From: Botryllus schlosseri
Lineage: Eukaryota
Direction of reading: 5' to 3'
Assembly (NCBI GenBank): GCA_051294905.1
Contig: CM119372.1
Span: forward strand, 24,616,001-24,680,000
Length of the DNA stretch: 64,000 nucleotides
The notes under the pieces were generated by a model that searched no databases, had not been told where the DNA came from, and saw nothing but the letters and a program-made list of their open reading frames with translations. Shown in pieces: positions 15,591 to 54,027 of the stretch (the stretch's first letter is position 1; each line of letters begins with the position of its first letter). The translations under genes and the position numbers were made by a program.

Positions 15591-15609
15591 CAACGCGTAT
15601 GTATGTATG

Positions 15610-15869
15610 TGTTGTGAGCACGAAACAATATTCGTAAGCAGTTTATTACTTCGGCTTAAATGAACTAATACCTTGACTACGATACTCGCAATACCAACAG
15701 TTAAGACAACAGCAACATAAATGTAGAACGATTCTCAGTACGCGAAACAGGTAGACAGTCTGCAATCATTACAGTCCACGCCAGTACATTACGACGAATG
15801 ATCTTTAACACAGAAAGGTAATCACAACAAAACTGAAGTCGGTACCAATTAGACACCAAACATACAACA
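15610..15869 (-). repeat. 3' LTR
   Basis: Direct repeat of 19528-19787; adjacent to the PPT. Confidence 0.95.
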
Positions 15870-15885
15870 TTCACCCCTCCTTATT

Positions 15886-18800
15886 TTAATGAGGCACTGG
15901 TTGTCCGTATCTATTCGGTGGGACGCCTCGTGTTGTTCTAGAGGAGCGACGAGGTACAACTTGCATTTCGTTTGAACGGAAAGGAGAATTGTCCGCTACG
16001 TTTGGCGGTTCTTCATCCTTCTGGGTAACGAGCTTGCAACCCTCGATGGCATCGGGGAGCTCCGGAACAACCGGAATTTCTTCCGGAACTTGCGGACGAG
16101 GACACGGGGCAATATCGGTTATTGCAACGTTTCTTTCTCTTCCATCGACGTGGCGAACGTTCGCATACAACGGGTTGGCATTCAACAATTCCACTTCCTC
16201 CACCAAATCGTCGTTTTTATTCGAACGGACGTGACGTTTCAGGAACACAGGACCAGGTTGGGATAACCAAGTCGGCAGGGTCTTTCCGCTGGGTAGCCTG
16301 CGATTGAAACCAAAAAACAGTTCATGCGGAGTAGAATTTGTACTAGTACAAAGCAGGGAGCGAGTCGCTCGTAATACATGAGGTAAAGCTAGCTCCCAGG
16401 ATTCGACGGGTAACTCGTGTGATCGAAGGTATAATCGGATCGCTTTCCACAAAATCCCATTATAGCGTTCGACTTGAGCATTTCCGGTCGGATGATAAAC
16501 GGTAGAATGACTGCTTGCAACGCCCTTACAGAGCAGGTAATCTTTGATTTCGCGAGACATGAACGAACTACCACGATCTGAATGAATGTAACTAGGCGTA
16601 CCACAAAGAGCAAATAGCTCATCTAGACATTTGATAACAGTGGATGACCACATATTTGGACAAGCGAAGCAAAATGGAAAGCGTGAAAATTCGTCAACCA
16701 CTACTAGTATATATCTGTTACCAGTGTTCGATGGCAGGGGGCCTTTGAAATCCATGTTTAAACGCTCGAACGGTTTTGTGGACTTGATCAGGACTCCCTG
16801 TTCTCGGCGATAAAACCGAGGCTTGATTTCGGCACACACTTGACATGTCGAGCATACTCTTTTCACATCGGAAGTTGAGTAGGGCAAGTTCTGCGAACGA
16901 ACAACATGAAGAAGCCGGGTGACTCCCGGGTGACACAGCTCTCGATGCAGTTCTTCGAGATTACACGTCGAAATGGACGAACAATGGGCTCGGGTCAGGG
17001 CGTCGGGTGCACAATTCAATTCTCCTGGCCGATATCGAATATCGTACGTGAACTGCGCCAACTCTAGGCGCCAACACTGAATCTTATTGTTCTTGATTTT
17101 CGACCGCTTTCGCATATCGAACATGAACGAAACAGCTTCCTGATCCGTGATCAAGGTAAATCTTCGTCCTGCCAAAAAGTGCTGCCATTTCCTCACTGCT
17201 TCGATAATAGCAGTCGCCTCTTTCTCGACGGCAGGGTAGTGCTTTTCGCTATTGTTGAGCGTGCGGGACATGAAAGCAATAGGTCGGCCACCCTGATTCA
17301 ACGTCGCCGACACTGCGACATCGGAGGCATCACACTCCACCACAAAGGGCTCGTCGTCATCGATCGCTTGTAAAGCGGCGTCCTCCACGCCCTTTTTCAA
17401 TGCATTGAAATCATTCAAGCACTTCGCGTTGATTGGAAAATCGACACAGTTGATCAAACTTGCAATTTTGTCTGAGAACGCCGGTATCCACTTTGCGTAA
17501 TAGGCAAATAATCCCAACGCCCTCTTCAGAGCTTTCTTGTTTGTAGGTGGAGGCAATTCACGCAATGGTTTCAATCGCTCCGGATCAGGTTTTATGACAC
17601 CACGACCAACACGGTATCCTAATATATCCACCTCTGCGACCGATGAAATGGTCTTATTGTGGTTGAGAGTCATGTTTCTTGCACTCAACGCATTCAACAA
17701 GCGCTCAACACTTTTATCGTGTTCCGACTGTGACTGGCCTCCGACAGTGACATTATCAAGGTATGGAAACGTATCTGTCAGTTTGTCCGAATCGACAATC
17801 GCGTCCATAGTTCGTTGAAATGCGGGTACACCGTTTGTGACCCCGAACGGCAACCGATTGAACTCCCACAATCGACCGACGGCTTCAAAAGCGGTAGGCG
17901 CTTTATCGGACTCTTGTAGCTCCAATTGGTGATACGCGCTCTTCAAATCAAAAGTTGAAAATACTTTGTATTTTGCCAGTTTTTGTACGATGTCCTCTAT
18001 GCGAGGCAAAGGGTAGGCATCGAGTACCGTAAAGCGGTTCACAGTTTGCGAATAATCTATGCACATTCGCTTTTTACCGGATTCTTGATTGGTTACGACC
18101 AATGGCTGAGCGCGCCATGGTGAACTACTTGGTCTTATAATTCCGTCTTTCGACAGCTTGTCAACTTCAGATTCGATGAAGGCTGTATCTGCAGCGCTAT
18201 AACGCCTTGATGGCACGCACACTGGCTTGAAATCTGACGTAACGGACTTGAAGAGTTGTGGACATTTCGTGTTAGATGCTAGAACAGCACAGGTTCTACG
18301 GTCCTGAGATGATATAACGAGTTCCGGGTCTTTGCCATTATACGTGAACACCACGCGTTTATGTCGTTTCTGAAAGTCTTGACCAAGTATTATATCGCAA
18401 CAGAGATCTTTCATGACGCCTAGCGTGACATTTCTGTAAACCTTCCCGTTCAACACCAACTCTACGATGCATTGACCAGAGATTGATTCTTTCAGAGACT
18501 TTGCCGCCATCGTTACGCAATCTGTATAGGGCAACACCTTCAATTTCATCGCTTCAACTGTCCTTGGATTGATGTAGCTTAAGCCACTTCCAGGATCCAC
18601 CAACGTTGACATTCGCTCGTCTTTTAGGAATGTATCTATGATTGCGTAACGCAAACATCTTGGTGCTTCTTGTATAGCGCAGGACGAGGACGAACTATGT
18701 TTCGTGGATGGTGTTTTTCGAGTGGATGCATCCGCTACACTTTTGCAAACTTTCGAGTAGTGCCCCGTCATCCCACATTTGTAACAGGTGGATGAGCGTG

Positions 18801-19497
18801 CTGGACAATTTTTACGGGCATGTTGAATTTTGTCACCACAAAAATAACATTTCCACTTGCCACGATGCACAGCTGCTGCAGCGTTTTCACGTTCTTTGTC
18901 GGATGCTGCTTCAGATTGAACGGTTGCTATTGGAATCTCGGCACCGCCAGAAGACATGTACGAGGACGAATTCCTTTGTGCAATGTCCAAGGTCCGGGCC
19001 TTCCTAAAGGCACTGTCAATTGTCAATTCGGTTTCCTCCAACAACCGCTGCCGTATGGCATGCGAAAGAATGCCGTTGATGAAGGAGTCTCGAATAAATC
19101 CGTCTCGGTGTTCAGTTTTGGAGACTGCAAGAAAGTTACAATCCTTGCTCAACCTGCGTAGTTCTTGCAAATATTCATCCAAGCTTTGTCCGTGCTTTTG
19201 TTTCGTTGTCGCCAGCACATGACGTGCAAACACCTCGTTAGGTGCTTTGACAAAAAGGTTTTCTAACGTTGCAATTGCGGTTTCATATGTCTCAGCTTCA
19301 TCGATATACTCGAAAAGGACATACGATAAGAAGTTTGTAAGAATCTTGAGTTTTTCTATTCTGGCACTTCCTGTCTCGAAGGCCGCAAGATAATTCTCGA
19401 AAGTTCTTCGCCAATGCTTCCACTCTTTCTCTGACGTCGGGCTATTGGGTTCAATTTCCAATACCTTCGGTTTCAACGGCTTCAGTGCTTCAGACAT
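15886..19497 (-). CDS. Gypsy Gag-Pol polyprotein (Gag zinc knuckles, protease, RT, RNase H, integrase), 1203 aa
   Basis: CYFC..H..C and CYKCGMTGHYSKVC knuckles; LVDPGS protease; RMCIDY, LPFG and YLDN in RT; CDASD and TD in RNase H; HHCC plus D(FKG), (S)D(RG), E(RYNG) in integrase; Gypsy domain order. Confidence 0.96.
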   Translation of the reverse strand: MSEALKPLKPKVLEIEPNSPTSEKEWKHWRRTFENYLAAFETGSARIEKLKILTNFLSYVLFEYIDEAETYETAIATLENLFVKAPNEVFARHVLATTKQKHGQSLDEYLQELRRLSKDCNFLAVSKTEHRDGFIRDSFINGILSHAIRQRLLEETELTIDSAFRKARTLDIAQRNSSSYMSSGGAEIPIATVQSEAASDKERENAAAAVHRGKWKCYFCGDKIQHARKNCPARSSTCYKCGMTGHYSKVCKSVADASTRKTPSTKHSSSSSCAIQEAPRCLRYAIIDTFLKDERMSTLVDPGSGLSYINPRTVEAMKLKVLPYTDCVTMAAKSLKESISGQCIVELVLNGKVYRNVTLGVMKDLCCDIILGQDFQKRHKRVVFTYNGKDPELVISSQDRRTCAVLASNTKCPQLFKSVTSDFKPVCVPSRRYSAADTAFIESEVDKLSKDGIIRPSSSPWRAQPLVVTNQESGKKRMCIDYSQTVNRFTVLDAYPLPRIEDIVQKLAKYKVFSTFDLKSAYHQLELQESDKAPTAFEAVGRLWEFNRLPFGVTNGVPAFQRTMDAIVDSDKLTDTFPYLDNVTVGGQSQSEHDKSVERLLNALSARNMTLNHNKTISSVAEVDILGYRVGRGVIKPDPERLKPLRELPPPTNKKALKRALGLFAYYAKWIPAFSDKIASLINCVDFPINAKCLNDFNALKKGVEDAALQAIDDDEPFVVECDASDVAVSATLNQGGRPIAFMSRTLNNSEKHYPAVEKEATAIIEAVRKWQHFLAGRRFTLITDQEAVSFMFDMRKRSKIKNNKIQCWRLELAQFTYDIRYRPGELNCAPDALTRAHCSSISTCNLEELHRELCHPGVTRLLHVVRSQNLPYSTSDVKRVCSTCQVCAEIKPRFYRREQGVLIKSTKPFERLNMDFKGPLPSNTGNRYILVVVDEFSRFPFCFACPNMWSSTVIKCLDELFALCGTPSYIHSDRGSSFMSREIKDYLLCKGVASSHSTVYHPTGNAQVERYNGILWKAIRLYLRSHELPVESWELALPHVLRATRSLLCTSTNSTPHELFFGFNRRLPSGKTLPTWLSQPGPVFLKRHVRSNKNDDLVEEVELLNANPLYANVRHVDGRERNVAITDIAPCPRPQVPEEIPVVPELPDAIEGCKLVTQKDEEPPNVADNSPFRSNEMQVVPRRSSRTTRGVPPNRYGQPVPH

Positions 19498-19527
19498 TGT
19501 ATCGTCAAGAACTTTAGTTCATTTAAT

Positions 19528-19787
19528 TGTTGTGAGCACGAAACAATATTCGTAAGCAGTTTATTACTTCGGCTTAAATGAACTAATACCTTGACTACGA
19601 TACTCGCAATACCAACAGTTAAGACAACAGCAACATAAATGAAGAACGGTTCTCAGTACGCGAAACAGGTAGACAGTCTGCAATCATTACAGTCCACGCC
19701 AGTACATTACGACGAATGATCTTTAACACAGAAAGGTAATCACAACAAAACTGAAGTCGGTACCAATTAGACACCAAACATACAACA
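19528..19787 (-). repeat. 5' LTR
   Basis: Direct repeat of 15610-15869; 30 bp upstream of the gag ATG; contains AATAAA on the minus strand. Confidence 0.95.
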
Positions 19788-19859
19788 GTATGTATAATTG
19801 GAAATGGTGCATATAACTGCAAATGTTTTTTGCACCATGCCATTTCAAAATCAAAAGAT

Positions 19860-27428: not shown

Positions 27429-27698
27429 CAATTAGGTGCGACCTCTACTGACTGCCGTCGTATTTCACACGGTAAATCCCCAAAATGTTATGTCGTATCG
27501 CAATGAGAACGACGTTATAATTGTCTGTGTGATAGGTGAAGCGGTACACGGTGTTGTTGACAATTGTGAAGCGTTTACGACGTAGATAACGATAACCATT
27601 GTGTTGCTTGAACACGGCAAATATGATCGCCGACAGTACAGCTTGCATTTGATCTCGTGGCCGTTTACCAGTCGTAGCGTGAATTGTTCGCTAGTGTA

Positions 27699-30521
27699 AT
27701 GGATTCAATCGACAAAGAAGAAATGGCTTTGTCCAATGAATTAAGAAGTTATTGCTCACACTATGGCGTGGAAGGGCGGGAATTCCTGAATACAACAGCG
27801 ACACTGCTATTAAAACTTGGAAAAATCTATGCAAGTAAGGCATCAGCGACGGATGGTATACTGCGAAAACTGTCTTATATCAGGTGCGCTGTGCTTCTGT
27901 ACGCAGCGCAGGCTAGATTTCACATCACTGAGAACGAGGTTATGCTAGCTGAAGTCTGCCTGGCCATTGATTATTTTGAAAGGATGCTTGAGCGAAGTTG
28001 TACTCTTACACCTAATTCCAATTTATACAAATTGTCCATCGGAATTAAGAAAAGAGTTAGAGGTATTCGCTCTCGAATTAAAACGGAATTATACAGGGTT
28101 GTGTTTAGACATAATCCAGTACGCGACAAGGATGAGTTTTTGGAGAAAATAAGCAATATTCTTTCGATGGATCAACTCATCATTGACGATGATAGTACCA
28201 GATATTTGTCTCGCGACGCTGCGCCCGATGAAGGGAGAGTTATTTCGGAAATGCGAACATTCATGGATGATGTAACGAATCAATACAAATCAGTGATGTG
28301 TGAAATTGCTCAAACTTGCCTCAACTTATTGCCCGAGCCACCTTGCAAGTTTTGCATCGTCGGTCTAGGATCGTTCGCTCGAGGTGAGGTGACAATGTTT
28401 TCAGACTTTGAACACGTTATACTATTGGATGCAAATCCTGACACGATGGAAAACCGCAATGTCATTGCAGAATACTTCCGCTGGTATTCTGTGGTATTTC
28501 AAATTGTAGTCATCGGTATGGGCGAAACCATCATACCCAGCGTCACAATCAAATGTTTGAACGATGCTTACTCTGACGATCCAACTGCCAATTGGTTTTA
28601 CGACAAATACACCCCCAGAGGAATTTCCTTCGATGGAATGCTTCCGCATTCTTGCAATATACCCCTCGGAAGGGTGCAAACCACTGAAAAGCGCAAGCAT
28701 GTGGTTGAGTTGATTCAAACCCCCGAAAAGATGGCTTCGTTCTTATCTGTTGACGAATGCGAAAAGAACGGCTATTACCTGGGCGAGGTTCTTCGACAAA
28801 CCCGTTTCGTTTTCGGGGATATGTCCACCTACGAATCATTTCGAACTGAAAGACAGCAGATACTGAGTTCGGAAGGTGCGTTTGGGCAAGAGAAGTACGA
28901 GAAATTCGTCGAGAATAATTCGAATCCTAACGTCCGGGAAAGTCAACATTTGACGGACATTACTGCATTCGACGCTAAAAATATATTCTATCGCCCTGTG
29001 GTAACCTTACTGACCTTTCTTGGGCAAGTTCACAGCATGGCATACGATTCTCTTTTCGATTTAATAGATCAAATGCTGGAATCTGGAGTATTAGATAAAC
29101 TGCTCCATCACGATTTGAGCTACGCGTTGGCGGTCGCTTGCGAAATGAGATGGAAATTATACCTGGTCGCTGAGGAACAGCGGCACAGTGCTGAGCTAAA
29201 AGACATCACTGGTATCGTTGGTGAAAATGCAATTCACGCTTGTAAAAATGTCCTACCTCGTTTACGTGAACTTCTGTCTGGCAAAGAGAAGGAAAGAATC
29301 GAAATGAAAGAAGCTAAGGAAATGTTGATTAGTATCTCAAGTCGTGGCAACTTCGAGGAATCAGTAAAATTCGGCGAAAGGATCATTCGACAACTCAGCG
29401 GAGAGGAAGTGGACATGACATTCTTCACGATCAGAGTGCTTTGTGACAGTTATAAAGTCGGGTGCATCTCGCATTCAAAAAGAAGCGAATATTGGACTAA
29501 ATGCGAAGATCTTTACCGCGGTCACATCTGCGGAAAGTCATTGTCATACTGTGACGCAATCGAAGTGTTTCCGAGAATGAGCGTCATGTACTATACGCAG
29601 GGTAGATTCGATGAAAGCATGGAGGAATCAAGAAAGTTTTTCGAAGCCAACCGCATGATGTTGGAAATTGACGGCAAAATTCACCGTGAGTTTGCGCCCA
29701 ATTTCCAACAGTACCACGAGCTTGTATTTCAGAGAATGAACGTTGTTGAAGCCGAGAAACATTTGCAAGACGTAATGTGGGACGATCCATCCATAGCAGT
29801 CTCTGTTGATTGTGATTTCACGAAGCGTTACTACAAAGCTCTTATACTAGCCTTGCACAAGCCAAGCAATGGTGGCTCCGAAACGCAAGCGAAAGAAGAA
29901 TTTCGAACACTTGCGATAGACGCAAAAGAAAAGGCCAATAAACTCCAACAACCCAGACGATTTCTATTTACGATACTTTTTCGGCAAATTTCGTATATTT
30001 GGTTTGATGACGCCATTCAAAGTGTTGAATTCATCGAGCAAAACCCCATGCCTGCTTACTCGCAATATGAACTAGCATTGGTATTGGGATCCTGCATTGA
30101 TGTCATCAAATTCTTTTGTCTCTGCCGACTAGGTAGGTATAAAAAGGCCCTCGCTTGGGCTGAATCAGATGTGGAAATAGCACATTCAGACCTTGATAAA
30201 AGCATGCTATACCGTCTCACCCGCGGTCTCTTAACTCAGTTGTGGCGCAAGATGCAAGCCCAAAATATTGAATACGGGAAAAACGAAGCTTCTCTGATTC
30301 TACTATTCGTTACCAAATTCGTCAATACCGGCCAGGTGTCTGATTTGCTCTCTTCTCCGAACATAAAGACTCGTTCTGGCGCTTTGCTGTCGACGATGAA
30401 CGCGCAGGAAAACTTCTACGGAAGGAATTATGGAATGGAAGCGCTGCAAACCCTTCGCAACATTCAATGCGTAGTAAAACTGATGTTCGTAGGATTTCCT
30501 ATTTTTCTTTCTTCCCAGTAA
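27699..30521 (+). CDS. Intronless Pol-beta-superfamily (DUF294/GlnD-like) nucleotidyltransferase with helical substrate-binding region and TPR-like C-terminus, ~940 aa
   Basis: Uninterrupted 2.8-kb ORF, first ATG at 27699; motif CIVGLGSFARGEVTMFSDFEHVILL fits hGS-x(9-13)-DhE; downstream TPRGISFDG; amphipathic helical repeats in the C-terminal half. The family call is by motif recognition, not by search. Confidence 0.8.
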   Translation: MDSIDKEEMALSNELRSYCSHYGVEGREFLNTTATLLLKLGKIYASKASATDGILRKLSYIRCAVLLYAAQARFHITENEVMLAEVCLAIDYFERMLERSCTLTPNSNLYKLSIGIKKRVRGIRSRIKTELYRVVFRHNPVRDKDEFLEKISNILSMDQLIIDDDSTRYLSRDAAPDEGRVISEMRTFMDDVTNQYKSVMCEIAQTCLNLLPEPPCKFCIVGLGSFARGEVTMFSDFEHVILLDANPDTMENRNVIAEYFRWYSVVFQIVVIGMGETIIPSVTIKCLNDAYSDDPTANWFYDKYTPRGISFDGMLPHSCNIPLGRVQTTEKRKHVVELIQTPEKMASFLSVDECEKNGYYLGEVLRQTRFVFGDMSTYESFRTERQQILSSEGAFGQEKYEKFVENNSNPNVRESQHLTDITAFDAKNIFYRPVVTLLTFLGQVHSMAYDSLFDLIDQMLESGVLDKLLHHDLSYALAVACEMRWKLYLVAEEQRHSAELKDITGIVGENAIHACKNVLPRLRELLSGKEKERIEMKEAKEMLISISSRGNFEESVKFGERIIRQLSGEEVDMTFFTIRVLCDSYKVGCISHSKRSEYWTKCEDLYRGHICGKSLSYCDAIEVFPRMSVMYYTQGRFDESMEESRKFFEANRMMLEIDGKIHREFAPNFQQYHELVFQRMNVVEAEKHLQDVMWDDPSIAVSVDCDFTKRYYKALILALHKPSNGGSETQAKEEFRTLAIDAKEKANKLQQPRRFLFTILFRQISYIWFDDAIQSVEFIEQNPMPAYSQYELALVLGSCIDVIKFFCLCRLGRYKKALAWAESDVEIAHSDLDKSMLYRLTRGLLTQLWRKMQAQNIEYGKNEASLILLFVTKFVNTGQVSDLLSSPNIKTRSGALLSTMNAQENFYGRNYGMEALQTLRNIQCVVKLMFVGFPIFLSSQ

Positions 30522-34342: not shown

Positions 34343-37300
34343 TCATCGGAAGGTGCACCCCATTATGTTGTTCTTTACGTTCGAGATGATGTTTTCTAGT
34401 TGGGGGTCTTGCAGGATCGGTTTCCTCATCGTTATCCTCCGCTTGAACGTATTCAGCAGCCACTGGCGATCTATCTTGCGCGTCTCTTGTAGCTTCTTGT
34501 TTCTTCCAGTCCATATCGCCTGTTTGAACATAGAGATTAGGATCATTAGAGTTCGCTCATGGCCTTCCCTGATTGGTCGTTTGGGTGACATATGAAGTAT
34601 GGTCTGCATGTTCGCTCTTTGTTCGGTATTTGCCGTGACTTGTTCCCACGCTCCTAAAATGAGGTTTAGAACTGGTGTAATTGTATCACACTGGGTAAAA
34701 ATATGGACATGAGATTCAGTTCGGATTTCGCAGAGTGCACACTTATCAGTTGGTTCGACCAGGCGTGCGTTCAACTTATCCATGGTTGGAAGTATTTGAT
34801 GCGCCGCATCCCAGTTGAGGTCTCTTTGTTTCCGCGTTAGGTATTTTGCACGTACGTTCTACCAGCTCGGGCCTTCCATGTCCATGATTTCCCTTTTTGT
34901 GTTGCCTTACGATTGTCGCCCGGTATACGTCCTTCGACATTCCTTTTTCGTAGTCTGCGTCTAGGATTTCCAGTTCCCTCATTGTTTCGTTCACTTCCAC
35001 CCAGTGTGGTTGCGGCTGAAATGCATGAGGTCTGTCATTAGATAGTTTGTTCTTTCTGTACCTGTTAAGGATGATTGCCAGCTGGTGCTCCATACGTCCG
35101 TCCCATTCTGTCTCCGTGTTTTGCCCGAGTTTTTTAAATACCGGATTGCAGGCTTGATGAAGATGAGGTCCGTAATTCTTGGTATATCGGTCAAGCCAAG
35201 TCCTCCGATTTCCTCCTTTTGAATAATCTTGTTGTAATCCGCCCTCTTCTCTATGCAGAACAGGAATGACATAATGAGTTCTCTTAGTTTGGCCTTCAGA
35301 TCCTTCGGCATTCTCGAGGTGGTGGCGTGATATGCGAACAAAGGAAGAATATTGGTCCTTATTAGTTCTATTTTTTCATACCTTTGAAATTTCATCTTTT
35401 TCATTTCTCGGATGCGTCGATCTGTTTTGCCAATTGCCGCTTCCCATTGCTGTTCTGCTGCTTGCAATTTGTTGCCTATTGTTTTTCCTAATATGCTAAC
35501 CTCATCGGCCCATTGGATCGCCGTTGCTGTATTGTATTGGCCTTCTGCTCCAAATTTTATTCCTTTTGTTTTTTCCCAATTAATTTGTAGTCCGCTTGCC
35601 TTCCCGAATTGGGTGACGATGCGCACGGCCTTTTCGCAATCTTGTACTTTCGCCAGCGTTATTGTCACATCATCGGCGTACGCCGGGGTGGTGATTCTGT
35701 TCTTGAGTCCGGTCAGTTTGTACCGGGCTAGGTTCTGGTTGAGGCTCTGTAACAAAGATTCGGTGGCAATGGTGAACAAATACATGGAAATAGGGTCGCC
35801 TTGTTTAATTCCCGTCTGAATTTCTATTTCGTTACCAATTCTCCCCCCAACTGAGACTCGCGATGTGCTCTTTTCGTATACTTGCCGGTAGAATTCACGA
35901 AAGGTTGGCCCGAAGCCTGCCGATTTTAGTGCTTCCTGTAGGTAGTTGTGATCTACAGTGTCGTAAGCCTTTTTGAAATCGATAGATATTATTGCGCCTT
36001 GTTCTTTGGATCTCATTTCTGATGCTGCTTCCCTGATCAAGAGGTTCAGCTGCTCGATGGTGTTGGGCGGGTTTACGAATTGGTGCCGATGCGTGATGTT
36101 CGGCAGCGCCGCCTTTACTCTGTTGGAAAGAGTTTTGCTTAGTATTTTATAGTCACAGTTCAAAAGTGTTATTGGTCTGTAATTTTCTATATTTTTTGCA
36201 TCACCCTTCTTGTAGATGACCTTAAGAATTCCTCTTGCGAGGCCGCTCGATACTTCCTGCGTAGTGTAAATTTCATTGAACACTTCGGTCAAATCTTCGG
36301 CTATCGTGTCCCTGTTCTCAATGTAAAATTCCGCGCTGATCCCATCCTCCCCCGGGGTTCGATTCCTGTTTTGTTGTGCGATGGCTAAGCGGACCTCGTC
36401 TTCGGTGATTGGAGCGTCTATTTTCTCCTGCTGCTGCATCGTCAGCTGTTTTTCCTGGTACCTGAGAAAACTACTTGCAGTTTGTTGGTTTGTTTGTTTC
36501 TCACCGTATAGTTCCGTGTAGTATTTTTCGATGATTGTTCTTATTTGTTCATCATCCGAGGTTATTGTTCCATTTTCGTCTTTTAGTTCTTCGATGTTCA
36601 CCGCCTCCTTCCTCTTCCTTATTGTCTGACAGAGGAAGTATGGATTGTTGTCCAGGATCGTTTCTCGCTTGGCTTTTGCTTCTGCCTGAAGCTTGGATAG
36701 CTCTTCCGCTTTCCTCTTCCATATTTTCTTCTTTATTTACCTGTATTCTACTTCAGAGATGTTATTTCGTAGAACATTTTGTCTTACCTCTTCGAGCTCG
36801 TTCTCCTCCTTCAATCTGATGTCCCGCTTTTCTTTTAGGGTTTCCCCAGCGTGTTTCACCGCGAGGTGCTTTAGTTTCCTCTTGACGGCTTCCCACCATT
36901 CGATTTTGGTTTCGTATATGGCTGGATGCAGCGTCTTCCATCTTCGCCATTTTACTTGGAAGTCATTTTGGAACGCCTTCTTTTCGTATATTTGTGTGTT
37001 ATTCTTCCACGAATTAGGCCTCGGGCTCTTTCCTTTTACACGTAAGGTCGCAATCACAGCATCGTGGTCTGTAAGGGTACAGGTTATATGTTTGCAATTT
37101 AGAGGTATTATACCTTTCGAGGTGTAGATCCTGTCCAATCTGGACTTTCCTTTGGGGTAGAAATATGTGTAGTCTTTTTTTCCCCCATTTGTTTCGCGAA
37201 ATGTATCGGTCACTCCTATGGTCCTCATTACTGAGCGATTGTATGTGGCGTCTTCTCCAAGTCTTGTTATGTTGGGCGGTTCGCGGTCGAGTTCGCAGCT

Positions 37301-37750
37301 GTCAACCCCGTTAAAGTCTCCCGCTACCACGTGTCGTTCTTTCCGGCTTATTCTTGTTGCCAGTTGACGCAAGAGTGCTCTTCTTTTCGTTCTGTTATTG
37401 TGACCGTATACGTTAGTGATAGTGAGATTGATTTTACCTGACTTGATTCGAATTTGTAGTATTCTTCCTTCCGTATCCATCGTCTGGTCTAGTGTTCTGT
37501 ATGATTTCCTTCTGTGCGTTAGTAGAACTGCTGTTCCTGCCGTTTTCCCGTTTCCGGAATTCCAAAAAGACTTTCCCTTCCATTCTGCAGCCCAAGTTCT
37601 TTCAGTGTCCAGTGTGGAGTGCGTTTCTTGCAGACAAATTATGTCGGCGCCTGTGTCCTTAATGTATTTAAATATTAGTTCTCTTTTACTGGCTAGATTC
37701 ATTCCGTTGACATTGATTGTTAGAATCTTAAAAATATTCGGACCTGCCAT
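34343..37750 (-). pseudogene. LINE ORF2 (endonuclease-RT-zinc finger) broken by about three frameshifts
   Basis: TINVNG, LQETH, AGDFN, SRLDRIY, TDH (APE); YRPITLLNCDYK, DFKKAYD, KQGDPIS, YADD (RT); CALC..ESHVHIFTQC; split across ORFs 36737-37750, 34991-36601, 34776-35093 and 34343-34783. Confidence 0.92.
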
Positions 37751-37764
37751 AATGAACGTTAGGC

Positions 37765-39381
37765 CTACTTGTTAATAGTTGCGGACTTTTGCCTCTTCGA
37801 TTTCCTGCACCTTGCGCACGATTTGTAAAACTTGGCATCCTCATTTCGGATTAGGTTGCCACAGCAGCTGGATATTTGGCATTCGCTTTTGCAGGTCCCG
37901 CAGATTATTGTTGTATTGTTAGTTAATTGTTCGCCCGTCACGATGAATTGATCATTCGTGTTGCAGCACGCCTGTATAATACAGTTTTCAGTTTGACATT
38001 GCATACAGGTACATACCGATCTTTGGTTCGTGAATGTAATCGGCCTGCCGCAGCTGATGCACGAGTCCGCTCCCTTTATTTCACCAGAGTAGCTATTGAA
38101 CCTTCTGGTTGGCTGGATATGCTCCTCAGAGTCAGTGCTTTCCCTTTGCCTCTTGTCCCTCGAGGTCATATCCTGAGGCGCTTCATCTTCTGGTCTATTT
38201 AAAAGGGCATTCGTTTGATCAAACCAATCGCTTTGATATACCTCTGCATTTTCGCTACTGCTTTTGTTGTTTGGGCTCTCGAATATGGTAAATATGTTCT
38301 TGTCGGTGTCGACGGTGTTTTGGACGTCCTTTATGCATCGAATCGTTTGGCTCTCGTCTATTTCTTCGTCGTCCTTTGCCGGTTTGTCGTCGGACTCTTT
38401 CGCCGCACCCTGCTGTTCGTTCGTTTCACCCGATGGGCGTTCTTCTTGCTCTTCGCGTTCACTCGACATACGTCTCTCGTTTCCTTTTATGGGCCCGACT
38501 TCCTCCGATCTCCTCCGCTGGGTTTGTTGTTTTCTTGCGCTCTCCTCGATTGTTGATTGGCTGTCGATTGCAGTCGTTTCCATCGACGTCATGCGTTTCG
38601 CCTCGACATCTCCACCTATTGATGTCGCAATAGTGGGTGTCGGCGCATTTCCTGCATTCTCTGTTAGCGGATTTCGATATTGCTGGGTCCCTCTGTTGAT
38701 ACTTGGGGTGATTTGTGGGTCTTCGCGCCTCTCGTGCTCTCTCCTCCTAGGTCTGGGAGGTCTTGTTGATTTCGTCGGGCATAATCTAGCAATATGTCCT
38801 GGCTGCTCACATATAGCACATGTAGCTGTTTGTCCGTTGTATTTCACTGCGATTTTCGCCCCATCTATCCAAATATATGATTTTATTGAGTTTTCTTCAA
38901 TACACTTTTTTCCTACTAACACGCTTCGGATCCCGTTTTTAAATCCCATGTCATCTTTTTGCTGGAAGATGCTCTTTATGGGTCCATGATTGTTTTCAAA
39001 ATATTCCTCTATCCGGTCGTCTCCCATGCGAATGGGCACCCAGCTGAGGTAAATCGCGATGTTTTCAGAGATGTACATCCAGTGTGTCGGGAGGTCGATT
39101 CCATCTCTCTTCATTTGTACCATTCTTCTGTCCACGTTTACCGCCAGTCTTCTCTCTCTGAATGTGAGGTCAATCTGACCATTCGGGAACTTTATGATTC
39201 CTTCTATGTGCTCCTTGTCGATTCCGACTGCATCGAAAAGTTCTATTAATTCTGGTCTTTCTGGCACTTGACTCAGTTTGATACCAATGTCGCATGTCCT
39301 GTCTATTAGCTGTGTAGCACCAGCTGCATTTGCGTATGACGTTGAGGCCGCACCTCTATTTTCATCTTCCACCATCGCCAT
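37765..39381 (-). CDS. LINE ORF1 protein (RRM-like region, CCHC knuckle, disordered linker, Cys-rich tail), 538 aa
   Basis: SYANAA start, NGIR, YNGQTATCAICEQPGHIARLCP typical of Tx1 ORF1; ends 14 bp before the ORF2 ATG. Confidence 0.88.
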   Translation of the reverse strand: MAMVEDENRGAASTSYANAAGATQLIDRTCDIGIKLSQVPERPELIELFDAVGIDKEHIEGIIKFPNGQIDLTFRERRLAVNVDRRMVQMKRDGIDLPTHWMYISENIAIYLSWVPIRMGDDRIEEYFENNHGPIKSIFQQKDDMGFKNGIRSVLVGKKCIEENSIKSYIWIDGAKIAVKYNGQTATCAICEQPGHIARLCPTKSTRPPRPRRREHERREDPQITPSINRGTQQYRNPLTENAGNAPTPTIATSIGGDVEAKRMTSMETTAIDSQSTIEESARKQQTQRRRSEEVGPIKGNERRMSSEREEQEERPSGETNEQQGAAKESDDKPAKDDEEIDESQTIRCIKDVQNTVDTDKNIFTIFESPNNKSSSENAEVYQSDWFDQTNALLNRPEDEAPQDMTSRDKRQRESTDSEEHIQPTRRFNSYSGEIKGADSCISCGRPITFTNQRSVCTCMQCQTENCIIQACCNTNDQFIVTGEQLTNNTTIICGTCKSECQISSCCGNLIRNEDAKFYKSCARCRKSKRQKSATINK

Positions 39382-41507
39382 CTTATTATTCGGCGCTTTC
39401 CGTTTCTAGACCTCTACCTCCACACCCCTGCATATTCGTGTCAATACAACCGAACACCGATAATAGATTGTTGAAGCGGTGGTTCCGCACGGATTCTACT
39501 TGAAAAAATTTCATAGGTTAATAATATCAAACGAAACCACAAAATGTGCGGTATCCATCGGTGTCGGTGCCAATAAGCAAAAAAAGAAAAAGAAAGAAAA
39601 GCCTAACAAACACGCTCAACAGCTGATTGTTACAGCTGTTGAAGAGACTTGAATCGTTTGCACTGTAACAGTGCTTCCAAACTCAGGTCAGCTAAGTTTC
39701 TCCTAAATTCATTTCTCGCCTAGCGAATCTGGGAAATATCGGCTACAACACTAGCCGTTAAGGGAAAGAATGTTGCCAGTCATCCACAAAAGGTTTTCAG
39801 AGCTTCAAAATCTTTGGAGGGCCGAACCGGCTTCCATGCATCATGAAAAGAGATCACTTCGCCAGTGCCATCGATCTCATCGCAGAAAGAATTTTCTTCC
39901 CGATCCTTTTCCAGGAGTTTCCTGTGTTGTCTCTCAACACATTCTCTTTAGTAGCCCGACTATCATTTCTCCCTCAGTCTACCGATATATTTTCGGAGGA
40001 CTTTTGTCACTTCGGGCTTTAATATTACCAACTCGAATGGAAGAGTCCTGGGAAGGGTAGCTTGTTTAAGAACATTAGACGCAACAAGACCGTCTGGCAA
40101 AACGAGACTATGCAGCTCAGAAATAGCCAGACAGTTTGTTGCGTCACAATGTTCCACTCGATCACAATGCAAAAATCGTGGTTGATTTTGGGGATTCCAG
40201 CTCCATGAGCAGAATATAATAAATATTTTAATAATCAGTACTGCGGCAGCTTTTCATTGATACCCGTTTTATCAAATTTAGTGCTCGACAAGCCGGTCAA
40301 AAATGGTCGTAAAATTGCCTTTGGGCAGATGGAAAGTATGACGTAAACCAAATGAAGTCAGCCGTTCAATCACGCTGTGCCCACAAAATTTAGGACACCA
40401 TGCTTTCACCCCTAATGGTTGGGCTGGACCCAGATTAAGAAACCTGCCTTTCACAAACGCTCTTCTCGCTTGTAACGCGGTCCTGTTAACACAACACCAT
40501 GAACGAAATACACCATTTGGCAGGCCGTGTTATTTTGGCATATGCCAAATATTGCTTATTTTTGGCATTTTCAATTTTTTATTTTTGGCAGTTTTGGCAT
40601 CTGGCTCCGGAAATGTCAAAAATAACACGGCCTGTATATAGGCCTACCTATGATAAATCACGGCTTATCGGAAGAGGTCCTGCGATCCAGATCTGCAGGA
40701 AAATAGCTAATGCCATACAGTGTAAAAGGAATATTTACATTTCTAGTTACGATACGTCCGCTACAGGTTACTACCCAGTAAACACCCAACCATAAAAGAA
40801 CCGTGCGGGATGGTGCCGACCAGGTTCCGATTTTATTGTTGCAAGGATATGTCTAAAATATGTAAAAACGATAATCTTGGAATACATTTAAACAGGAATT
40901 ATTTCGTTGCGGTGATATTCGCTCACATTTAATAAGTTCGTTGGATCCATTAGATATCGTTACTATGTTTGGTTTCACCAGAGTGTACTCAAAGGTGGTG
41001 TGGACACTGAAGGTGAATCCCCTAGTCACGCTCTGATTGGGTAGTCAACCTTGTTGTTGACGATCGATTTACAGCACTGATTCAATGCAAAAGTCGGTGT
41101 TGTTAGATGTCGAGTATGAAGATGTTTTATACCGAAATGGGTGTCAAGATTTGGTGTGGTATATCCTAATGATGCAATCTAATACTATGTCGAGTTTCAA
41201 AGTCGTTACTCAACGACCAGGGCAGTAATTTCGTTATCAAAGTCGAGTAACATGTTAGTGTCTGTCGATCCGTCTGCAGGACTGATTCAATGCAATTAGC
41301 GATGATTTGCCGTGTTTACGACTTCAGAAATAGTATTTTCGTCGGAGAGTTCGATAATTGATTTGTACAGATGTAGAATGATTCCATTGGAATGTTACCA
41401 AAGCCAAGAAGTCTGGCAGCAGTCGCCACATTTTAGTCAAAAAATCACTATTATTTATTGTCAACCATTGCAGATTGCTAGACTGACCACTAATCAAGTG
41501 TTGTAAT

Positions 41508-42544
41508 ATGGTCTACTGCTGCGTTCCTGGATGTAACTGGTCTTCTGTCAAATCGAGAAAGACAGGTGCGGGCCGTACTTTCTTTAGGATTTTGCGGCCA
41601 GATTTAGCAAAAAATTCAATATATACTTTGGACTCACATTCTTAAACTTTATGAAAATGAAAAATACAGCCTTATGCTCAGACGAACAAGACTCACAGAG
41701 GCCCATATTAAATTGAATCCATATTCCAAAGTACGTGTCCCATTTTAGTATATTATTATCACCAACAGCATTGACCAATCAATTGAAATCTAGATGAAAG
41801 TAAACTTGGCAAGAGACATTCTGAGCTGGGAGGTGGGTAAAAATTTATCAACAATGGATGGAGCCAAGGGTACCGCTGACTTCATCCTCCTTATGAACAG
41901 GTGCAATAGGTCTTTCTCGGCAAGAAGTTTAGGCCAAGCAGTAACTTATATTTTCTTACAGATGGTTTGAAGTTATCAATTGCGGGATCAGGAATCCTGT
42001 ACGGTGTATGGAGGATGACAGGATCAAATTTATCAAGGAATTTGTGCAAGATCTTCTGTTGTGGAAGGTAGTATTCAAATGTTTCCAATATGAGAATTAC
42101 ATATCCTATATATTTCAAAGGCTGAAGTGGATGAATTGGGCGAACAAAAGCGTATTCTTCCACGATCAACCTTGGAGGGATTAATCTTCACTTCACGTAA
42201 TTTCGTTTTTCTTTGTGAACGATTACTCCGTGAGTTAGATTACGTTTGCTTGCGGACCTTCTCACAAGATGTTCTGGAAGCTTTCTTTGGAAATCTTGTA
42301 AGAACTTATTTCTGAGATTACCGTATATAGTTTTTCGTGAATACCATTTTATGTTCAGAGGAACTTGGGCAGGCGCTCGCAAAATCCAGATTTGAAGGCT
42401 GTGGCTTACGGAGTGCAGCAAATCACTCAGCGCAAAATTATAAAAAAGATAAAAGGGGGAAATACTACTTTCGGCACCAAAAACGCTTGGCAAGAGGTCT
42501 GCAATGAGCCAATAGTGAAACGTCGTAAATCCGAAGGTCTGTAA
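41508..42544 (+). pseudogene. Spliced THAP/P-element transposase, internally deleted
   Basis: THAP start MVYCCVPGC at 41508, then GT-AG-separated exons WTHILKLY..RLTEAHIKLNPYSK | MKVNLARDILS..TADFILLMNR | WFEVIN..LLLWK | ..TFSQDVLEAFFGNL | RNLGRRSQNP..KGGNT..stop at 42544. The rest of THAP and the N-terminal catalytic aspartates are missing. Confidence 0.85.
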
Positions 42545-43652
42545 GACCCGGTACCGTATGCAGAAAGGTACTCGGCATGTATTCAGCAACTTATTTTCAG
42601 AGTAAGTTGGATATTGTCATCGGACCAGGAAAGGAGGCAGACTTGATCGAGCAGAAAATTTTCAAATTAGATTAGAATTATAACTAGGCCTACATATTTT
42701 TTCCCAAATTAGATTTGAATTATTGAGTTCGCAAGAACTTGGAAATTGAATGAAATTCCAAATACGAGAGAAATACAGCAAAGCAAAATTCAAGTTCAGA
42801 TCATGTCAAAGAGTATTCGTATGCATGCGAATGTTTATTGTATCTACACCAAGTTTGTCTTGTTTCGCTCAGTTCTCCTGTATGGTTGATGTTGCAACAA
42901 ATTATATTAGAATTAAGAAACTTTTTACTAATTAGATCAGAATTAGAATTGAAGCATAGAAAACTCTCACAAATTGGATTAGAATTAGATTACTGGCATT
43001 TCTCGTTCTAATTTAGTCAGCCAAGTCTGAAAGGTGGAGAGGTTATTTATAGTGGTTTGACGATGGAAAGGCGAAGGAACTGTAAGGATAGTCACTATTT
43101 GATCGAGTCATCTCAAGTCATTGCGCATTGACTTGACCATTCCATATGACTTATATCTGTGCTAGAGACTGCTCAGTGCTCACCATATCTGTAATGGAGA
43201 GGATACATTTCTCTCAATAGAAGTGTTCCATAATGGAGTAACAAATCATGTCGCTCCATTTTATTTTCAGAATAAATATAATTATTCTACCTGTGCTTGT
43301 CTTCTGTCTCACTTGTCTCGCGAACACAGGGGTGAATTGTAATGCAAAAATCAGAACATATTATGGTATCCTCCTTGGACTCAATTTATTGCCATCAGAT
43401 TGCAGAATAACGAGGAAAGACACGGTCAAGGACGAGTAGTGAAGGTTGAGTAATGACGACGATGCAAAGCTTCTATGCATGAGAAAGAATCCATAATATG
43501 AATGTTCTAATCAATAATAATCAGATTATATTTTCAATTGAACAAGACACACAAATGATGCGATGTAATGAACAGGCAGGACAATGCCGAAACGACCAGT
43601 GAATATGTAATTAAAAGTGCTAATGACAAGCAAAAATTATTAAATCCGTCTG

Positions 43653-44276
43653 CTAGCAGCCTTTACTTTGCAATTTTAAATTACCTCTCAACCCTTTGGT
43701 CAACAAGCACTTGCCTCGTATTCTTTCGAATAACTTCTTGGCAAATCCTCTTCCGAGAAGCTTAGTTACTGTTTTCACAATATGTGTGAGGATTGCCTCT
43801 AATAAATCGTAATCTATGTCTTGGTTACAGCGATATATATTCGCAATTTTGAAGAAATATTGGTCTTTCAAGATAATCTCATCAAACACACTGATGTCAA
43901 CATTACCGGGGGACCTGCTAAATTCTGAAGCCAATTTCAAATATTTCAATTATTTGTAGAAGCACATAGGATGGGTCTGGTACATCCGATGAGAAAAAGT
44001 CTGAAGCGCGAAGACAAAACTTGCTGTACTGCGTGACCAAATGTTCTTTATTTTTTGTTTTTTTTTGTATTCCTTCATCCAAGTTGCAACATTGATTGCA
44101 CCAAAAGACGAGAATTCAGCATCTGTGACATCTTCCAGTATACGAACAGTCTCATCTGTTATAATGGCACTTGATTCAGCCTGAAAAACGGCCGGTGATG
44201 CTTCAATGTCATCATCTATGGCTAGCAGTTCCTGAATAATTTCAGGTGAAAGCCATTCAATCTCGTTACAAGTCAT
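43653..44276 (-). pseudogene. Second, convergent ORF of the P-element (~207 codons, one internal stop); unknown product
   Basis: ORFs 43950-44276 and 43653-43949 are contiguous and in frame across a single TAA; acidic N-terminus, basic helical C-terminus (GRGFAKK..KGLRGNLK). Confidence 0.6.
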
Positions 44277-45838
44277 TATATTACTAGATGTACTGTACAG
44301 CCAGCGTTCAGTCTAACAATCTGCAAGAGTCGACAGTCTAGCAATGATTTAATTTTGTTATTATTCTGGCAATCTGCGATAATAGTTGGCACTCACAGAT
44401 AGTGAAGTCGCCACATTTTCGTCATAAAATCACTGACGAAATTACTAGCCTAATCCTTGAGTCACGATCTTGAAACTAGGTAGAGTGCTAGATGACATCA
44501 TTAAGATGTACCGTACGAAATCTTGTCCCTATCTCGGTATGGAACATCGCCGAAATCAATACGTACAGATACCAGCTATTGCATTGAATCAGTCCTGCAG
44601 ACGGATTGACACTAACATACTCGACTTTGATAACAAAATTACTGCCCTAGTCATTGAGTAACGACTTTGAAACTCGACATAGTATTAGATGGCATCATTA
44701 GGATATATCACACCAAATCTTGACACCCATTTCGGTATAAAACATCTTCAAACTCGACATCTAACAACATCGATTTTTGCATTGAATCAGTGCTGTAAAT
44801 CGATCGTCAACAACGAGGTTGACTACCCAATCAGAGCGTGACTAGGGGATTCACCTTCAGTGTCCACACCACCTTTGAGTACACTCTGGTTTCACTGCAT
44901 ACGGCTGTAAACACTCAAAACTGGAATTGGTCTATCAAACCGTTTATTTTTTCATTTACGGCCTTCATTATAAGTATATTCGTAGTCTTGTATGTCCACT
45001 GGGCACGCGCTGATGAGAAAACGCTGTAGTATCTGCGTAATATTTACATTGGTAAAATACATAGAAAAGACATTGAATTGAGTCTACACAAAATCCCCCT
45101 TTCTACTAACCCACCAAGTTCTCATATCTACCAAATCAACTTAGCTTTTCTACATCTTTGGTCTGTAAATTGTTTGCTGGGTAAGTATGACCAGTCAAAC
45201 TGCGCATTTGCACCATGATGTAGACGCTGCAGATGACTGAACCACCGACTAGGCTATGTCATACTCAGAATTTGGATTCGTCGACCTATTGTTTATCACA
45301 TTCTCTCACTGCACCTCTGAGCAGTCCAGTTGACAAACTAATGTGCCGCGACACACCAGTTAAGAACCACTGGTTCAGTGCTTTTCAACATGTGGGATGG
45401 TACGCACTAGTGCGGATAAAATAAATCAGTGAGGATGACAAACGTGGTGCGGATGAATATCCGTACGGCTGCGGATGTAAATCACAAACAATTGATACTG
45501 TTTGGGTCGGCACGGCTCCAGAGCGATCGGTTAAATATATGTAGTATTTGTTGAATTTCTTGCCCAAAAACAAGCCTGTTTCTTCGCGCGATTTCCTATG
45601 CATAATTTTTTTATTGCAAGGTCACTGTATTGGGTACACTGGTACAGCAGCCAATAAAGAGACACATAGAAATATAGCTTGATCATGACACTGTGACAAC
45701 CTTTGTTTTAGCCTACTTAAAATTGTTTGAATTCCTGATAGGATTTGTTCGATTGGTTTCTCTGGAAAACACCGTGGAATCCTGTTGCGATGCTTTACTC
45801 TAGTCTCGGGTGTGCAACGAGCGTGTGCGGGCCTACAT

Positions 45839-50978: not shown

Positions 50979-52766
50979 ATAAGGGTAAGGTAGATGAACT
51001 ATGAAGCATGACGAGTGACGTCCTTCAAAATATTTTTATTCTTAACGTTCGGCGGGAATGGCGATGTCAGAAGTGTCAGATGTATGTAAATATGTAAATA
51101 GTAATAACAGCGGACAAGGTATGTAGGGAAAATGGTTAAATTCGCCCGCGCAACAGACGTACTTCGACTATGGAGATGAGAAGAAACCGCAAGGTTATTA
51201 TCGAGTCACCAGGACCAGTAATAGCAGTGTTTGCCAAACTATTTATGTACGGTGATTGGCTGATTGCTATGTGACATTGTGATTGTGACAATGTGACCTA
51301 TGTCAGAGTCACATTTATTTACGGCGATTGGATGCACAATTGCACATTAGCCGACCGCAAATGACGTTACCTCATATTCATAAATCTGATTTAGCACTAT
51401 GTGGACAGTGAGAGCTCGTAATGGGATTTTCTCTAACAGTTTACCTCTACCATAATTCAGTGCTTTTCAACCTTTTTGATCACCATCTGCACTTCTTTGA
51501 CAAAAATTTCATCCGCACAAACCAACCAACAATTGTTATATGAAGAGAAAATGAAGATGCGTAACAATATCTTGTTGAACAAGACTTGATCACATGTGCG
51601 ACATCGACAAATATATAGGCTGCCGGTTTAGGCCATCAAGTGTATCATTAAAAAGAAAACTATTTTCCTTCGTTTTGATTTCAACTTTTTATAATGCACT
51701 TACTGCACACTAAGACACTTTTCGAACAAATAAGTGTTAGGTTTTGTACTTGGATAACCAGGTCTGCTGTCTGTATATAAGAACCCTCCAGCACCCCTAT
51801 CCAAAATACAGCGCATCTTCTACAAGTGAAAAATGTTTGCTGGCAACAATCGTTTTAGGACTATGACTCAGGGTCTCGGAGACTCCCAGATCGTCAAAGG
51901 GTTTAAACTCGCATGGTTGTTTTAATGCTTCTGACTTGTGGCTTGGAACATCCAGAACTATCGAGGAGAGTAGGCACATTGAAGATACCGGTATCTTATG
52001 ATATGCGGCTCCAACTTGTATTCTGTATTCTAAAGTGTCAACTGTAATTCTTACAAACCTTACCTCAACCTTAATCCTGTTTCGACCACTCATTTCGTTC
52101 TCTTATCATCATGTGCAGGGGCGTAGCCAGCCGAAAAAAAAAAACGGGGGATATTTTTTGAAAAGATGATATTCGTTATGCTAACCACTTCATTGCGGTT
52201 TAATACACACAAATGCCGATACTACAAGGGTAAGATAATCTCGTTTGTGTTTACTTCTTTATACACATGAACATTTACCAGTTATCTTAGAATATAGCTC
52301 TATTATGCGCAGACGCATGCTGCAGTACGGTAACAAACGGAAGGCGCTTTTGCCTTGCGCGCCACTATTTGCCGACAGCGAGTTTCATGCGCGCGGATCT
52401 TGATACAAAGCGCGCTCAAATCATGACTCAACGCAGCAGGTTATCGATGATCACCTCGCAAATCACAATGTATCAGATCAGATAGAAGTAGCAAACAAAT
52501 TTCGATGACAGCGAGGTATCTTGACCTTAATTACCAAAGCAAGGATGTATTCACGAAAGTGCGCGCGGATCATATTACAGCACAGTGGAAGATCTCTCCA
52601 TTTTGCGCTCAAAGACGAACACTCGAACAGTGAAGACACGCAAATGAATTATAGTCTGTTGTCGTTTGATACAAACAATCTGGATTAATTTTGTTTCAAA
52701 TTAATATGATTTGTCTGCCAAGATGGTGTAGTATTTTTGGTGTGTGGAGATGGTAAAGACTAATTA

Positions 52767-53946
52767 CCGTCCTTGGACCGACTTTTTTCCTCATTTATAT
52801 TAACGACATTGTTAATGCATCTTTATTCCGCACAACGCTATTTGCTGATGATACTCACCTCTTCATAACCTCCAACACTGTCGATGATTTGCATGCATCT
52901 GTGAATAGGGAACTCCCAAAAGTGTGGAGATGGCTCCAAGCAAACAAACTAAGTTTGAATGCAGATAAGACCGAGATGCTCGTTTTAAATAATGCCAGTC
53001 ATAATTTCACTGTGAACATCAATCATAAACAAATCTCAATATGTGACTCAGCAAAATATCTCGGCGTCACCATTGATTCCAAATTGTCTTGGAAGCAGCA
53101 TATTGAATGCACAATATCAAAACTAGCTCGGTGTGTGGGAATAATGACCCGTCTCCAATCTTTGGTTTCCAGATCAGTACTACGAACCATCTACTTCTCT
53201 CTTTTCCACTCTCATCTGCAATATGGAATCGTAGTATGGGGAAATGCATGCACATCATTTTTGTGCAGAATTCGAACCCTGCAAAACCGTGCGATACGGC
53301 TGATCTCATCTGTATACCTTTACGTACCAATTTATCGCCTTACTACCATGAAGCATCGAATTTTGCGAGTTGATGAACTATATCGCTTCGAAGTATCAAA
53401 AGTTGTTCACAAATATTTTTCCAATAGTCTGCCTCCTGTGTTTGAAGACTTTTTCATACCTGCTAAACATGTCCATTCCCATTACACGAGATCCTCGTCT
53501 AAAGGAAACATCTACTTACCCCCACCCAACAGCAACCTAACTAAGAGATCTATCGACTACTCGGGACCTATCATCTGGAATGCATTACCACCACATATCC
53601 GTGAATTGCCTTATAATAGATTCAAAAAAGCCCTACTTGATCACCTCTTGTCGTTACACTAACACTGTTGCCCTACCTCGCCCAGACATTGCTTCATTGA
53701 TCATTTGCTACCATTGTTTAATTTTTTTTTCTATTTTCCTTTCTTAACTAAACATTTTTTACAGCCAGACTGTTCAGAGTCAAGTGTACCTGTTTGATGC
53801 TGGTGTGATCAGACTAGATGACCTTCACGGTCTTATCGATCATTCCTATCTAATACCGAATACTGTGCACGCATATTTTCTGTACCACCATCACTGCCGT
53901 TTGTTATGTATTTTGGTTCAATGAAAATAAAGACTCTCTCTCTCTC
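52767..53946 (+). mobile_element. 5'-truncated L2/CR1-group LINE (RT C-terminal half and 3' UTR)
   Basis: Open frame VLGPTFFLIYINDI..LFADDT..ANKLSLNADKT..KYLGV..QNRAIR..WNALP to the stop at 53662; ends AATAAA plus a (CT)n tail. Confidence 0.9.
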
Positions 53947-54027
53947 ACTCACTGATATTCATTCTTCTTATTTTATTACAGTGTATAGTGCGTACTCATC
54001 TAGAGGTGAAATATCCCATTCAACGAT

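Follow-up and report, generated by a model that had tools for sequence, protein, structure and literature searches.

A Ty3/gypsy lineage of Botryllus schlosseri whose primer binding site pairs with its own LTR: a case for self-priming

We analyzed a window of 64,000 nucleotides from the genome of Botryllus schlosseri (contig CM119372.1, positions 24,616,001 to 24,680,000; coordinates given without a contig name refer to this window). A young Ty3/gypsy element of 4178 bp, located on the minus strand at 19787-15610, was found to carry, in place of a tRNA-type primer binding site (PBS), a segment that is perfectly complementary to a segment of its own LTR (the arm). By analogy with Tf1 of fission yeast, the 5' end of the element's own RNA is likely to serve as the primer for the minus strand. 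What was observed directly is that the pairing exists, keeps a fixed register starting one base beyond the LTR end, persists while its letters change and is absent from the host lineages with tRNA-type sites, and that rare copies carry inverted tails. The stem is real and lineage-wide, and self-priming is the most likely mode of priming in the lineage.

The element and the stem at its PBS

The assignment to Ty3/gypsy (Metaviridae) is based on the TG...CA ends of the LTRs, the target site duplication (TSD), the polypurine tract, and the order of the domains, with gag followed by protease, reverse transcriptase (RT), RNase H and integrase (Table 1). Among solved structures, that of Ty3 is the closest to the RT of the element. 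The initial annotation had described a single A after the 5' LTR, followed by a 13-mer complementary to the LTR, instead of TGG. All of its pairing coordinates proved to be exact on the minus strand: no TGG follows the 5' LTR, and beyond one unpaired A the 13-mer TTAAATGAACTAA (19526-19514) pairs with TTAGTTCATTTAA (19586-19574). The helix is extended, as had been noted, by CTTGAC (19509-19504) with GTCAAG (19595-19590) and by GATAC (19503-19499) with GTATC (19603-19599), and ends within 1 nt of the gag ATG at 19497.

Folding of this region with RNAfold recovered the same helices at -30.9 kcal/mol (z from -2.2 to -2.5). In two runs, 6 of 200 and 4 of 200 shuffled sequences folded as well as the focal region, and the folding energy of the whole region is thus only modestly unusual. 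The anchored match was compared to a different control, in which we recorded the longest LTR run anchored at PBS positions +1 to +4. It was at most 10 nt in all 5000 dinucleotide shuffles of the LTR, compared to the observed 13 nt; because none of the shuffles exceeded 10 nt, the match between the PBS and the LTR of the focal element is not due to chance.

A DNA search of the host genome (495 Mb, 219 contigs) produced 43 matches, with 40 of 90 candidates scored, and 12 of these copies retain the LTR, the leader and gag. The 13-bp core is perfect in eight of the 12, and the other four are changed on the PBS side. It had also been suggested that the stem may regulate translation of gag. Across families only a 12-bp core is conserved, and the leader up to the ATG ranges from 16 to 53 nt in families with long open reading frames.

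Table 1. Coordinates of the focal element (window positions) and of copies with inverted tails (host contigs)
Feature	Position	Strand	Remarks
5' LTR	19528..19787	(-)	260 bp, TG...CA; 2 differences from the 3' LTR
3' LTR	15610..15869	(-)	260 bp, TG...CA
TSD CATAC, 5 bp	19788..19792	(-)	partner copy at 15605-15609
LTR arm complementary to the PBS	19574..19586	(-)	would form the 3' part of the self-primer, with the cut predicted between 19574 and 19573
Distal part of the arm	19587..19610	(-)	helices 19590-19595 and 19599-19603; may form the 5' part of a primer of 30-37 nt
Inner stem-loop (predicted), stacking on the helix of the primer	19536..19573	(-)	contains AATAAA at 19565-19560
Lone unpaired A at the LTR end/PBS junction	19527	(-)	unpaired in 18/18 families of this register
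PBS without TGG	19514..19526	(-)	13-nt perfect complement of the LTR arm
Remaining leader (leader total 30 nt)	19498..19513	(-)	imperfect pairing with 19590-19603
gag-pol, one ORF, 1203 aa	15886..19497	(-)	two zinc knuckles, protease, RT, RNase H, integrase
RT active-site motif YLDN, residues 579-582	17752..17763	(-)	in place of YxDD
Polypurine tract	15870..15887	(-)	precedes the 3' LTR
Tail L232	C8:21342191		37 nt
Tail L233	C1:22351146		28-30 nt
Tail L234	C11:5858756		134 nt
Tail L235	C3:16043667		25-28 nt
Tail L236	C3:195442		28 nt
Tail L237	C12:17709109		35-43 nt

Conservation of the stem and position of the lineage

Relatives of the element were collected within and outside the host. In the host genome, 60 of the 150 places matching the N-terminus of Gag were taken, and both LTR ends and the TSD were resolved in 39 of them; outside the host, the same was achieved for 13 of 80 loci on metagenome and genome contigs. 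Loci with unresolved ends were left out before counting, and the resulting dataset consists of 53 elements including the focal copy, representing 19 families, 11 of which are found in the host. None of the 53 resolved copies has TGG in the first 6 nt after the LTR. A perfect run of at least 12 nt between the PBS and one of the copy's own LTRs is present in 44 of the 53, with letters that differ among families; the remaining nine fall short of 12 nt due to single mismatches, a 3-nt insertion or mis-called ends. When each family was represented by its best copy, a choice that inflates the per-family runs, the perfect run was 12-20 nt in all 19 families.

The run starts at PBS position +2 in 18 of the 19 families, and the base at +1 never pairs in these 18; GCC or ACC follows the arm in 15 of them. 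Of the 12 core pairs, three are invariant, and at each of the other nine at least two Watson-Crick types are found. The LTR of a family pairs with the PBS of this family better than the best foreign LTR in 18 of the 19 families (the mean of cross-family runs is 6.1 nt, n = 342 pairs), and single compensatory swaps are seen between close relatives (pairs L078/L080 and L162/L169). Retention of the stem in relatives, on which the initial annotation had made its proposal depend, is thus observed in 19 families, with compensatory changes. It should be noted that in the most divergent host family (L083, L117) two bases, GT, stay unpaired behind the LTR, the core sequence differs, and the arm is followed by neither GCC nor ACC; a perfect run of 13 nt is still kept in this family.

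As an in-genome control, we took 20 copies of other Gypsy lineages of the host, of which 14 were resolved. The perfect run is no longer than 5 nt in any of these 14, and TGG is present in all of them (within the first 6 nt in 12, and at the 5th and 10th base in the others). Several of the other host lineages, which we take to belong to the Mag (A, B and C clades) and CsRN1 types of invertebrate Gypsy, resemble the stem-bearing lineage in short LTRs, a single ORF and twin zinc knuckles; however, they have TGG sites. In an unrooted tree of RT-RNase H, a branch with 100/100 support separates the 10 stem-bearing rows from the 13 other rows, and the branch leading to the stem-bearing group is long (1.23 changes per column). 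The identity between the TGG-bearing host lineages and the stem-bearing group in this region is 27-34%. Membership of the element in the Mag lineage, which we considered first, is not supported: in this unrooted tree the stem-bearing rows are not nested among the comparison rows (host TGG-type lineages that are presumably Mag), and a tRNA-type PBS is absent.

The absence of a chromodomain, noted initially for the focal ORF, was confirmed, and none of the 32 aligned relatives has one either (E<=0.01). Some chromoviruses also have no chromodomain (PMC6317226); its absence lowers the chance of membership in the chromoviruses or the Tf1/sushi group and does not rule this membership out. The lineage appears to work like Tf1, as judged from its sequences, and membership in one clade with Tf1 is not established by a tree whose rows include no chromovirus reference. 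Named homologues, with identities of 46-52%, come from shrimp, copepod, isopod, damselfly and sea anemone. No match to a named clade was found among Cigr-1 and MolGy1-16 in passages of PMC6238403, or in passages of PMC12440569 and PMC2836005. No relative was found among viral contigs, and an Atlas search returned only unnamed Gag clusters. Elements of this animal lineage were also seen within contigs filed as bacterial metagenome-assembled genomes (L225-L230, L222-L224), which probably reflects host contamination of those assemblies.

The last residue of the RT motif is N in 89 of 121 homologous proteins and D in 30, and each state occurs in families whose frames are open. The same substitution, D to N, blocks transposition of Ty1 although the polymerase activity is kept (PMC2148107); natural YxDN enzymes bear on the question of why this change cripples Ty1.

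The primer and the inverted tails

The following pathway is proposed by analogy with Tf1. Transcription would start at or above the arm, with 19603-19610 as the best guess; the 5' end of the RNA would fold such that 19586-19574 pairs with the PBS; and a cut at 19574/19573, before the G at 19573, possibly made by RNase H as in Tf1, would free a 3'-OH. Synthesis would begin by copying the unpaired A at 19527 and proceed into U5. The primer may often remain on the minus strand, where plus-strand strong-stop DNA would copy it, and such copying would re-template the PBS from the arm in each cycle. If the primer stays attached, a compensatory change would be a one-step event, since the PBS is rewritten from the arm. 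A failed second jump after primer copying would leave tails. This helix could in addition mask the 5' poly(A) signal.

A candidate for such a tail was found among the matches of the focal-family search: an LTR followed by A and then by a perfect inverted copy of the arm, which extends beyond the natural pairing. We then screened seven families using 22-24 nt of the arm with one mismatch allowed (390 matches) and examined opposite-strand pairs at the expected spacing. There are six aberrant copies with the LTR, an A and an inverted arm, distributed among five of the seven families; none was found in the families of L107 and L086. All six tails begin exactly at the predicted 3' end of the primer, after the same single A. 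Five of them are 25-43 nt long, and one is 134 nt. In the focal family, both tails start at arm base 19574; one, of 28-30 nt, ends near 19603, and the other, of 37 nt, ends at 19610. A 4-bp TSD considered for the L233 tail was rejected, as none of nine homologous flanks continued into the other flank, and a seventh candidate (L238) turned out to be two copies in head-to-head orientation.

These tails are consistent with plus-strand copying of an attached self-primer. In L236 and L237, the tail follows the 5' LTR of an element with an intact TSD, and the sequence then jumps to internal positions 1530 and about 446, respectively; this shape is consistent with that expected of plus-strand strong-stop DNA that copied the attached primer and then made a faulty second jump. 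Alternatively, the tails could arise when plus-strand DNA folds back on the LTR arm that it carries, or from template switching at an imperfect palindrome during host replication, in which case they would say nothing on primer length; we regard such an origin as quite possible, if short of probable. The L234 tail is explained only by DNA fold-back: it continues as far as the LTR's first base, the 60 nt compared with its own LTR show no difference, and because it extends past any plausible transcription start, fold-back must also make tails of this kind. The L235 tail rejoins the natural leader in register and could be ordinary palindrome correction. However, five of the six tails stop at 25-43 nt, and L236 and L237 are shaped like failed second strand transfers, both points resting on small numbers. 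Fold-back explains at least one tail, and the tails are therefore better evidence for an LTR-templated end at the PBS than for a particular primer length.

No recorded RNA dataset is listed as carrying the element, which is not evidence in either direction. In raw RNA runs, two rounds of matching yielded 81 and 36 reads. Almost all of them lie within the LTR and differ from the focal copy at many places, and none of these reads crosses from the LTR into the leader. Five molecules in one single-cell run end at 19610, the same base at which the 37-nt tail ends; these ends did not recur in five other runs with LTR reads. A contig boundary at 19603/19574 in run X1, which resembled a start and a cut, was really a 30-nt overlap of two assembly pieces, and a TATA-like motif some 30 nt above 19610, chosen by eye only afterwards, was not used as evidence.

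Self-priming in cis has to be weighed against three other accounts of the helix. Its closest rival is a primer that is derived from the LTR and acts in trans, i.e., the 3' copy of R, a second packaged RNA, or short LTR transcripts that anneal to the PBS. The arm is present in both LTRs, the RNA reads found are almost all confined to LTRs, and the arm ends in an A-run beside a poly(A)-type hexamer in many families; the covariation, the register and the tails fit such a primer equally well. Nevertheless, a defined 3' end just before the conserved GCC or ACC would still be required, and structure prediction places an inner stem starting from that base: the first loop bases are paired in 13 of the 19 families, compared to 360 of 1140 shuffles (32%), which suits a fold in cis like that of Tf1. 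A second stem beside the primer helix, similar to the U5-IR, is reportedly a feature of Tf1-type elements. Priming in trans is clearly unlikely. The helix could also be a regulatory RNA only, which masks the poly(A) signal in the 5' LTR or dampens the translation of gag, the primer being something else. A hexamer (AATAAA or ATTAAA) lies within the paired arm in 14 of the 19 families, which is a second reason to conserve the pairing and counts against self-priming as the sole reason, and the focal stem reaches almost to the ATG. However, the arm has no hexamer in five of the 19 families, including that of the focal element; occlusion needs no register fixed one base past the LTR end; and this account leaves the element without a primer site and does not predict tails. 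Regulation alone is very unlikely; the helix may additionally serve to hide the 5' poly(A) signal, a role that accounts for neither the register nor the tails.

The third account, priming by a half of a host tRNA or by another small host RNA, is extremely improbable. We counted 28 genomic sites at which the 13-mer is followed by A, C or T (50 for the control pattern), of which 14 are copies of the element and 14 are unrelated to it; matches followed by G lay outside this screen, which leaves some room for a host primer. ARAGORN found no tRNA around the other matches in all 19 loci scanned, and Rfam gave no hits in all 20 loci. The longest anchored tRNA complement to any of the 11 host-family PBSs is only 5-6 nt, in an incomplete set of 62 tRNAs with 12 anticodon labels. 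Priming by half-tRNAs does exist in copia lineages (PMC6317226); against it here, the letters of the PBS vary by family and track each family's own LTR, and all six tails run on as LTR sequence, not as host RNA. The comparison of the PBS with host tRNAs, proposed with the initial annotation, and the added Rfam screen gave no host primer within this tRNA set and among these 13-mer matches. The earlier proposal of tRNA-independent priming similar to that of Tf1 is supported by the conserved stem with its compensatory changes and by the lack of a host RNA match, the self-priming step itself being carried over from Tf1. It should be noted that tRNA-Lys(TTT) genes of the host form a tandem array with a spacing of 160-200 nt (C3:34486000-34509600, L131-L143).

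Known self-primed elements and other features of the window

To our knowledge, Tf1 is the only element for which self-priming has been proven, and the mechanism is usually associated with chromoviruses. The literature states that RNase H releases the first 11 bases of Tf1 RNA, which pair with the PBS (PMC7175516), that about 50% of Tf1 cDNA retains a copy of the PBS at its 3' end (PMC11042837), that self-priming was shown for Tf1 and proposed for Tj1 and the Tf1/sushi group (PMC4600332), that it was predicted for the plant lineages Tcn1 (Ty3/gypsy) and TAR (copia) (PMC6317226), that hairpin priming is tied to some chromoviruses (PMC3601003), and that PBS-less TRIMs of bivalves were reported with no mechanism proposed (PMC6934838).

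Similar to Tf1/Tf2 of Schizosaccharomyces pombe, Tj1 of S. japonicus and the Tf1/sushi chromoviruses, the present lineage has no tRNA site and a PBS complementary to its own 5' LTR (PMC7175516, PMC4600332). The Tf1 cDNA can keep a primer copy at its 3' end (PMC11042837), for which the six tails are a candidate counterpart. The geometry is different: the Tf1 primer consists of the first 11 bases, whereas here the perfect core spans 12-20 nt, additional helices are present, the primer may be 28-40 nt long, and one unpaired base separates the LTR from the PBS in the present lineage. In contrast to the Tf1/sushi group, it has no chromodomain (32 of 32 proteins) and mostly a YxDN motif in the RT, and it is known here from sequence alone. 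As with Tcn1 and TAR/Houba/Osr-1, self-priming is predicted from lineage-wide complementarity between the PBS and the LTR, also outside chromoviruses (PMC6317226); however, those are plant lineages, and TAR is a copia lineage, whereas the present one is an animal Gypsy.

We found no description of self-priming in this lineage, or of a Gypsy clade with YxDN, in the literature searched, which did not include Repbase Reports, most subscription journals and supplements. Repbase Reports are said to contain notes on self-primed invertebrate Gypsy families. The mechanism itself is known from Tf1, and what is new are the tails, which could offer a genome-only way to read primer ends. If an abundant and recently mobile animal lineage does use the same logic with another geometry, the escape from tRNA priming arose or persisted more widely. 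Self-primed elements would escape control by tRNA 3' fragments, and the absence of a tRNA site explains why PBS-based annotation misses these elements. The strongest version of the proposal, namely that self-priming was invented independently in a widespread invertebrate Gypsy lineage, with a primer of ~28-40 nt that is never removed and rewrites the PBS in each cycle, with primer fossils in the genome, and with an RT that naturally lacks the second aspartate of YxDD, is doubtful as a whole and is put forward only tentatively.

Several other features were seen in the window. An uninterrupted 489-codon tubulin frame (54010-55479, plus strand; Pfam Tubulin and Tubulin_C), with an N-terminus that we take to resemble epsilon-tubulin, directly follows a LINE RT fragment (52757-53662) and is either a single-exon gene or a retrocopy. 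Another uninterrupted frame, of 947 codons (27678-30521, plus strand), has a stretch of the putative nucleotidyltransferase DUF294 as its sole Pfam match. A non-LTR retrotransposon with ORF1, endonuclease and RT frames occupies 34343-39405 on the minus strand, and its sense strand is strongly A-rich. Finally, 273-nt inverted repeats that are 97% complementary, separated by 3368 nt in which no frame reaches 150 aa, delimit a probable non-autonomous DNA transposon at 40977-44890.
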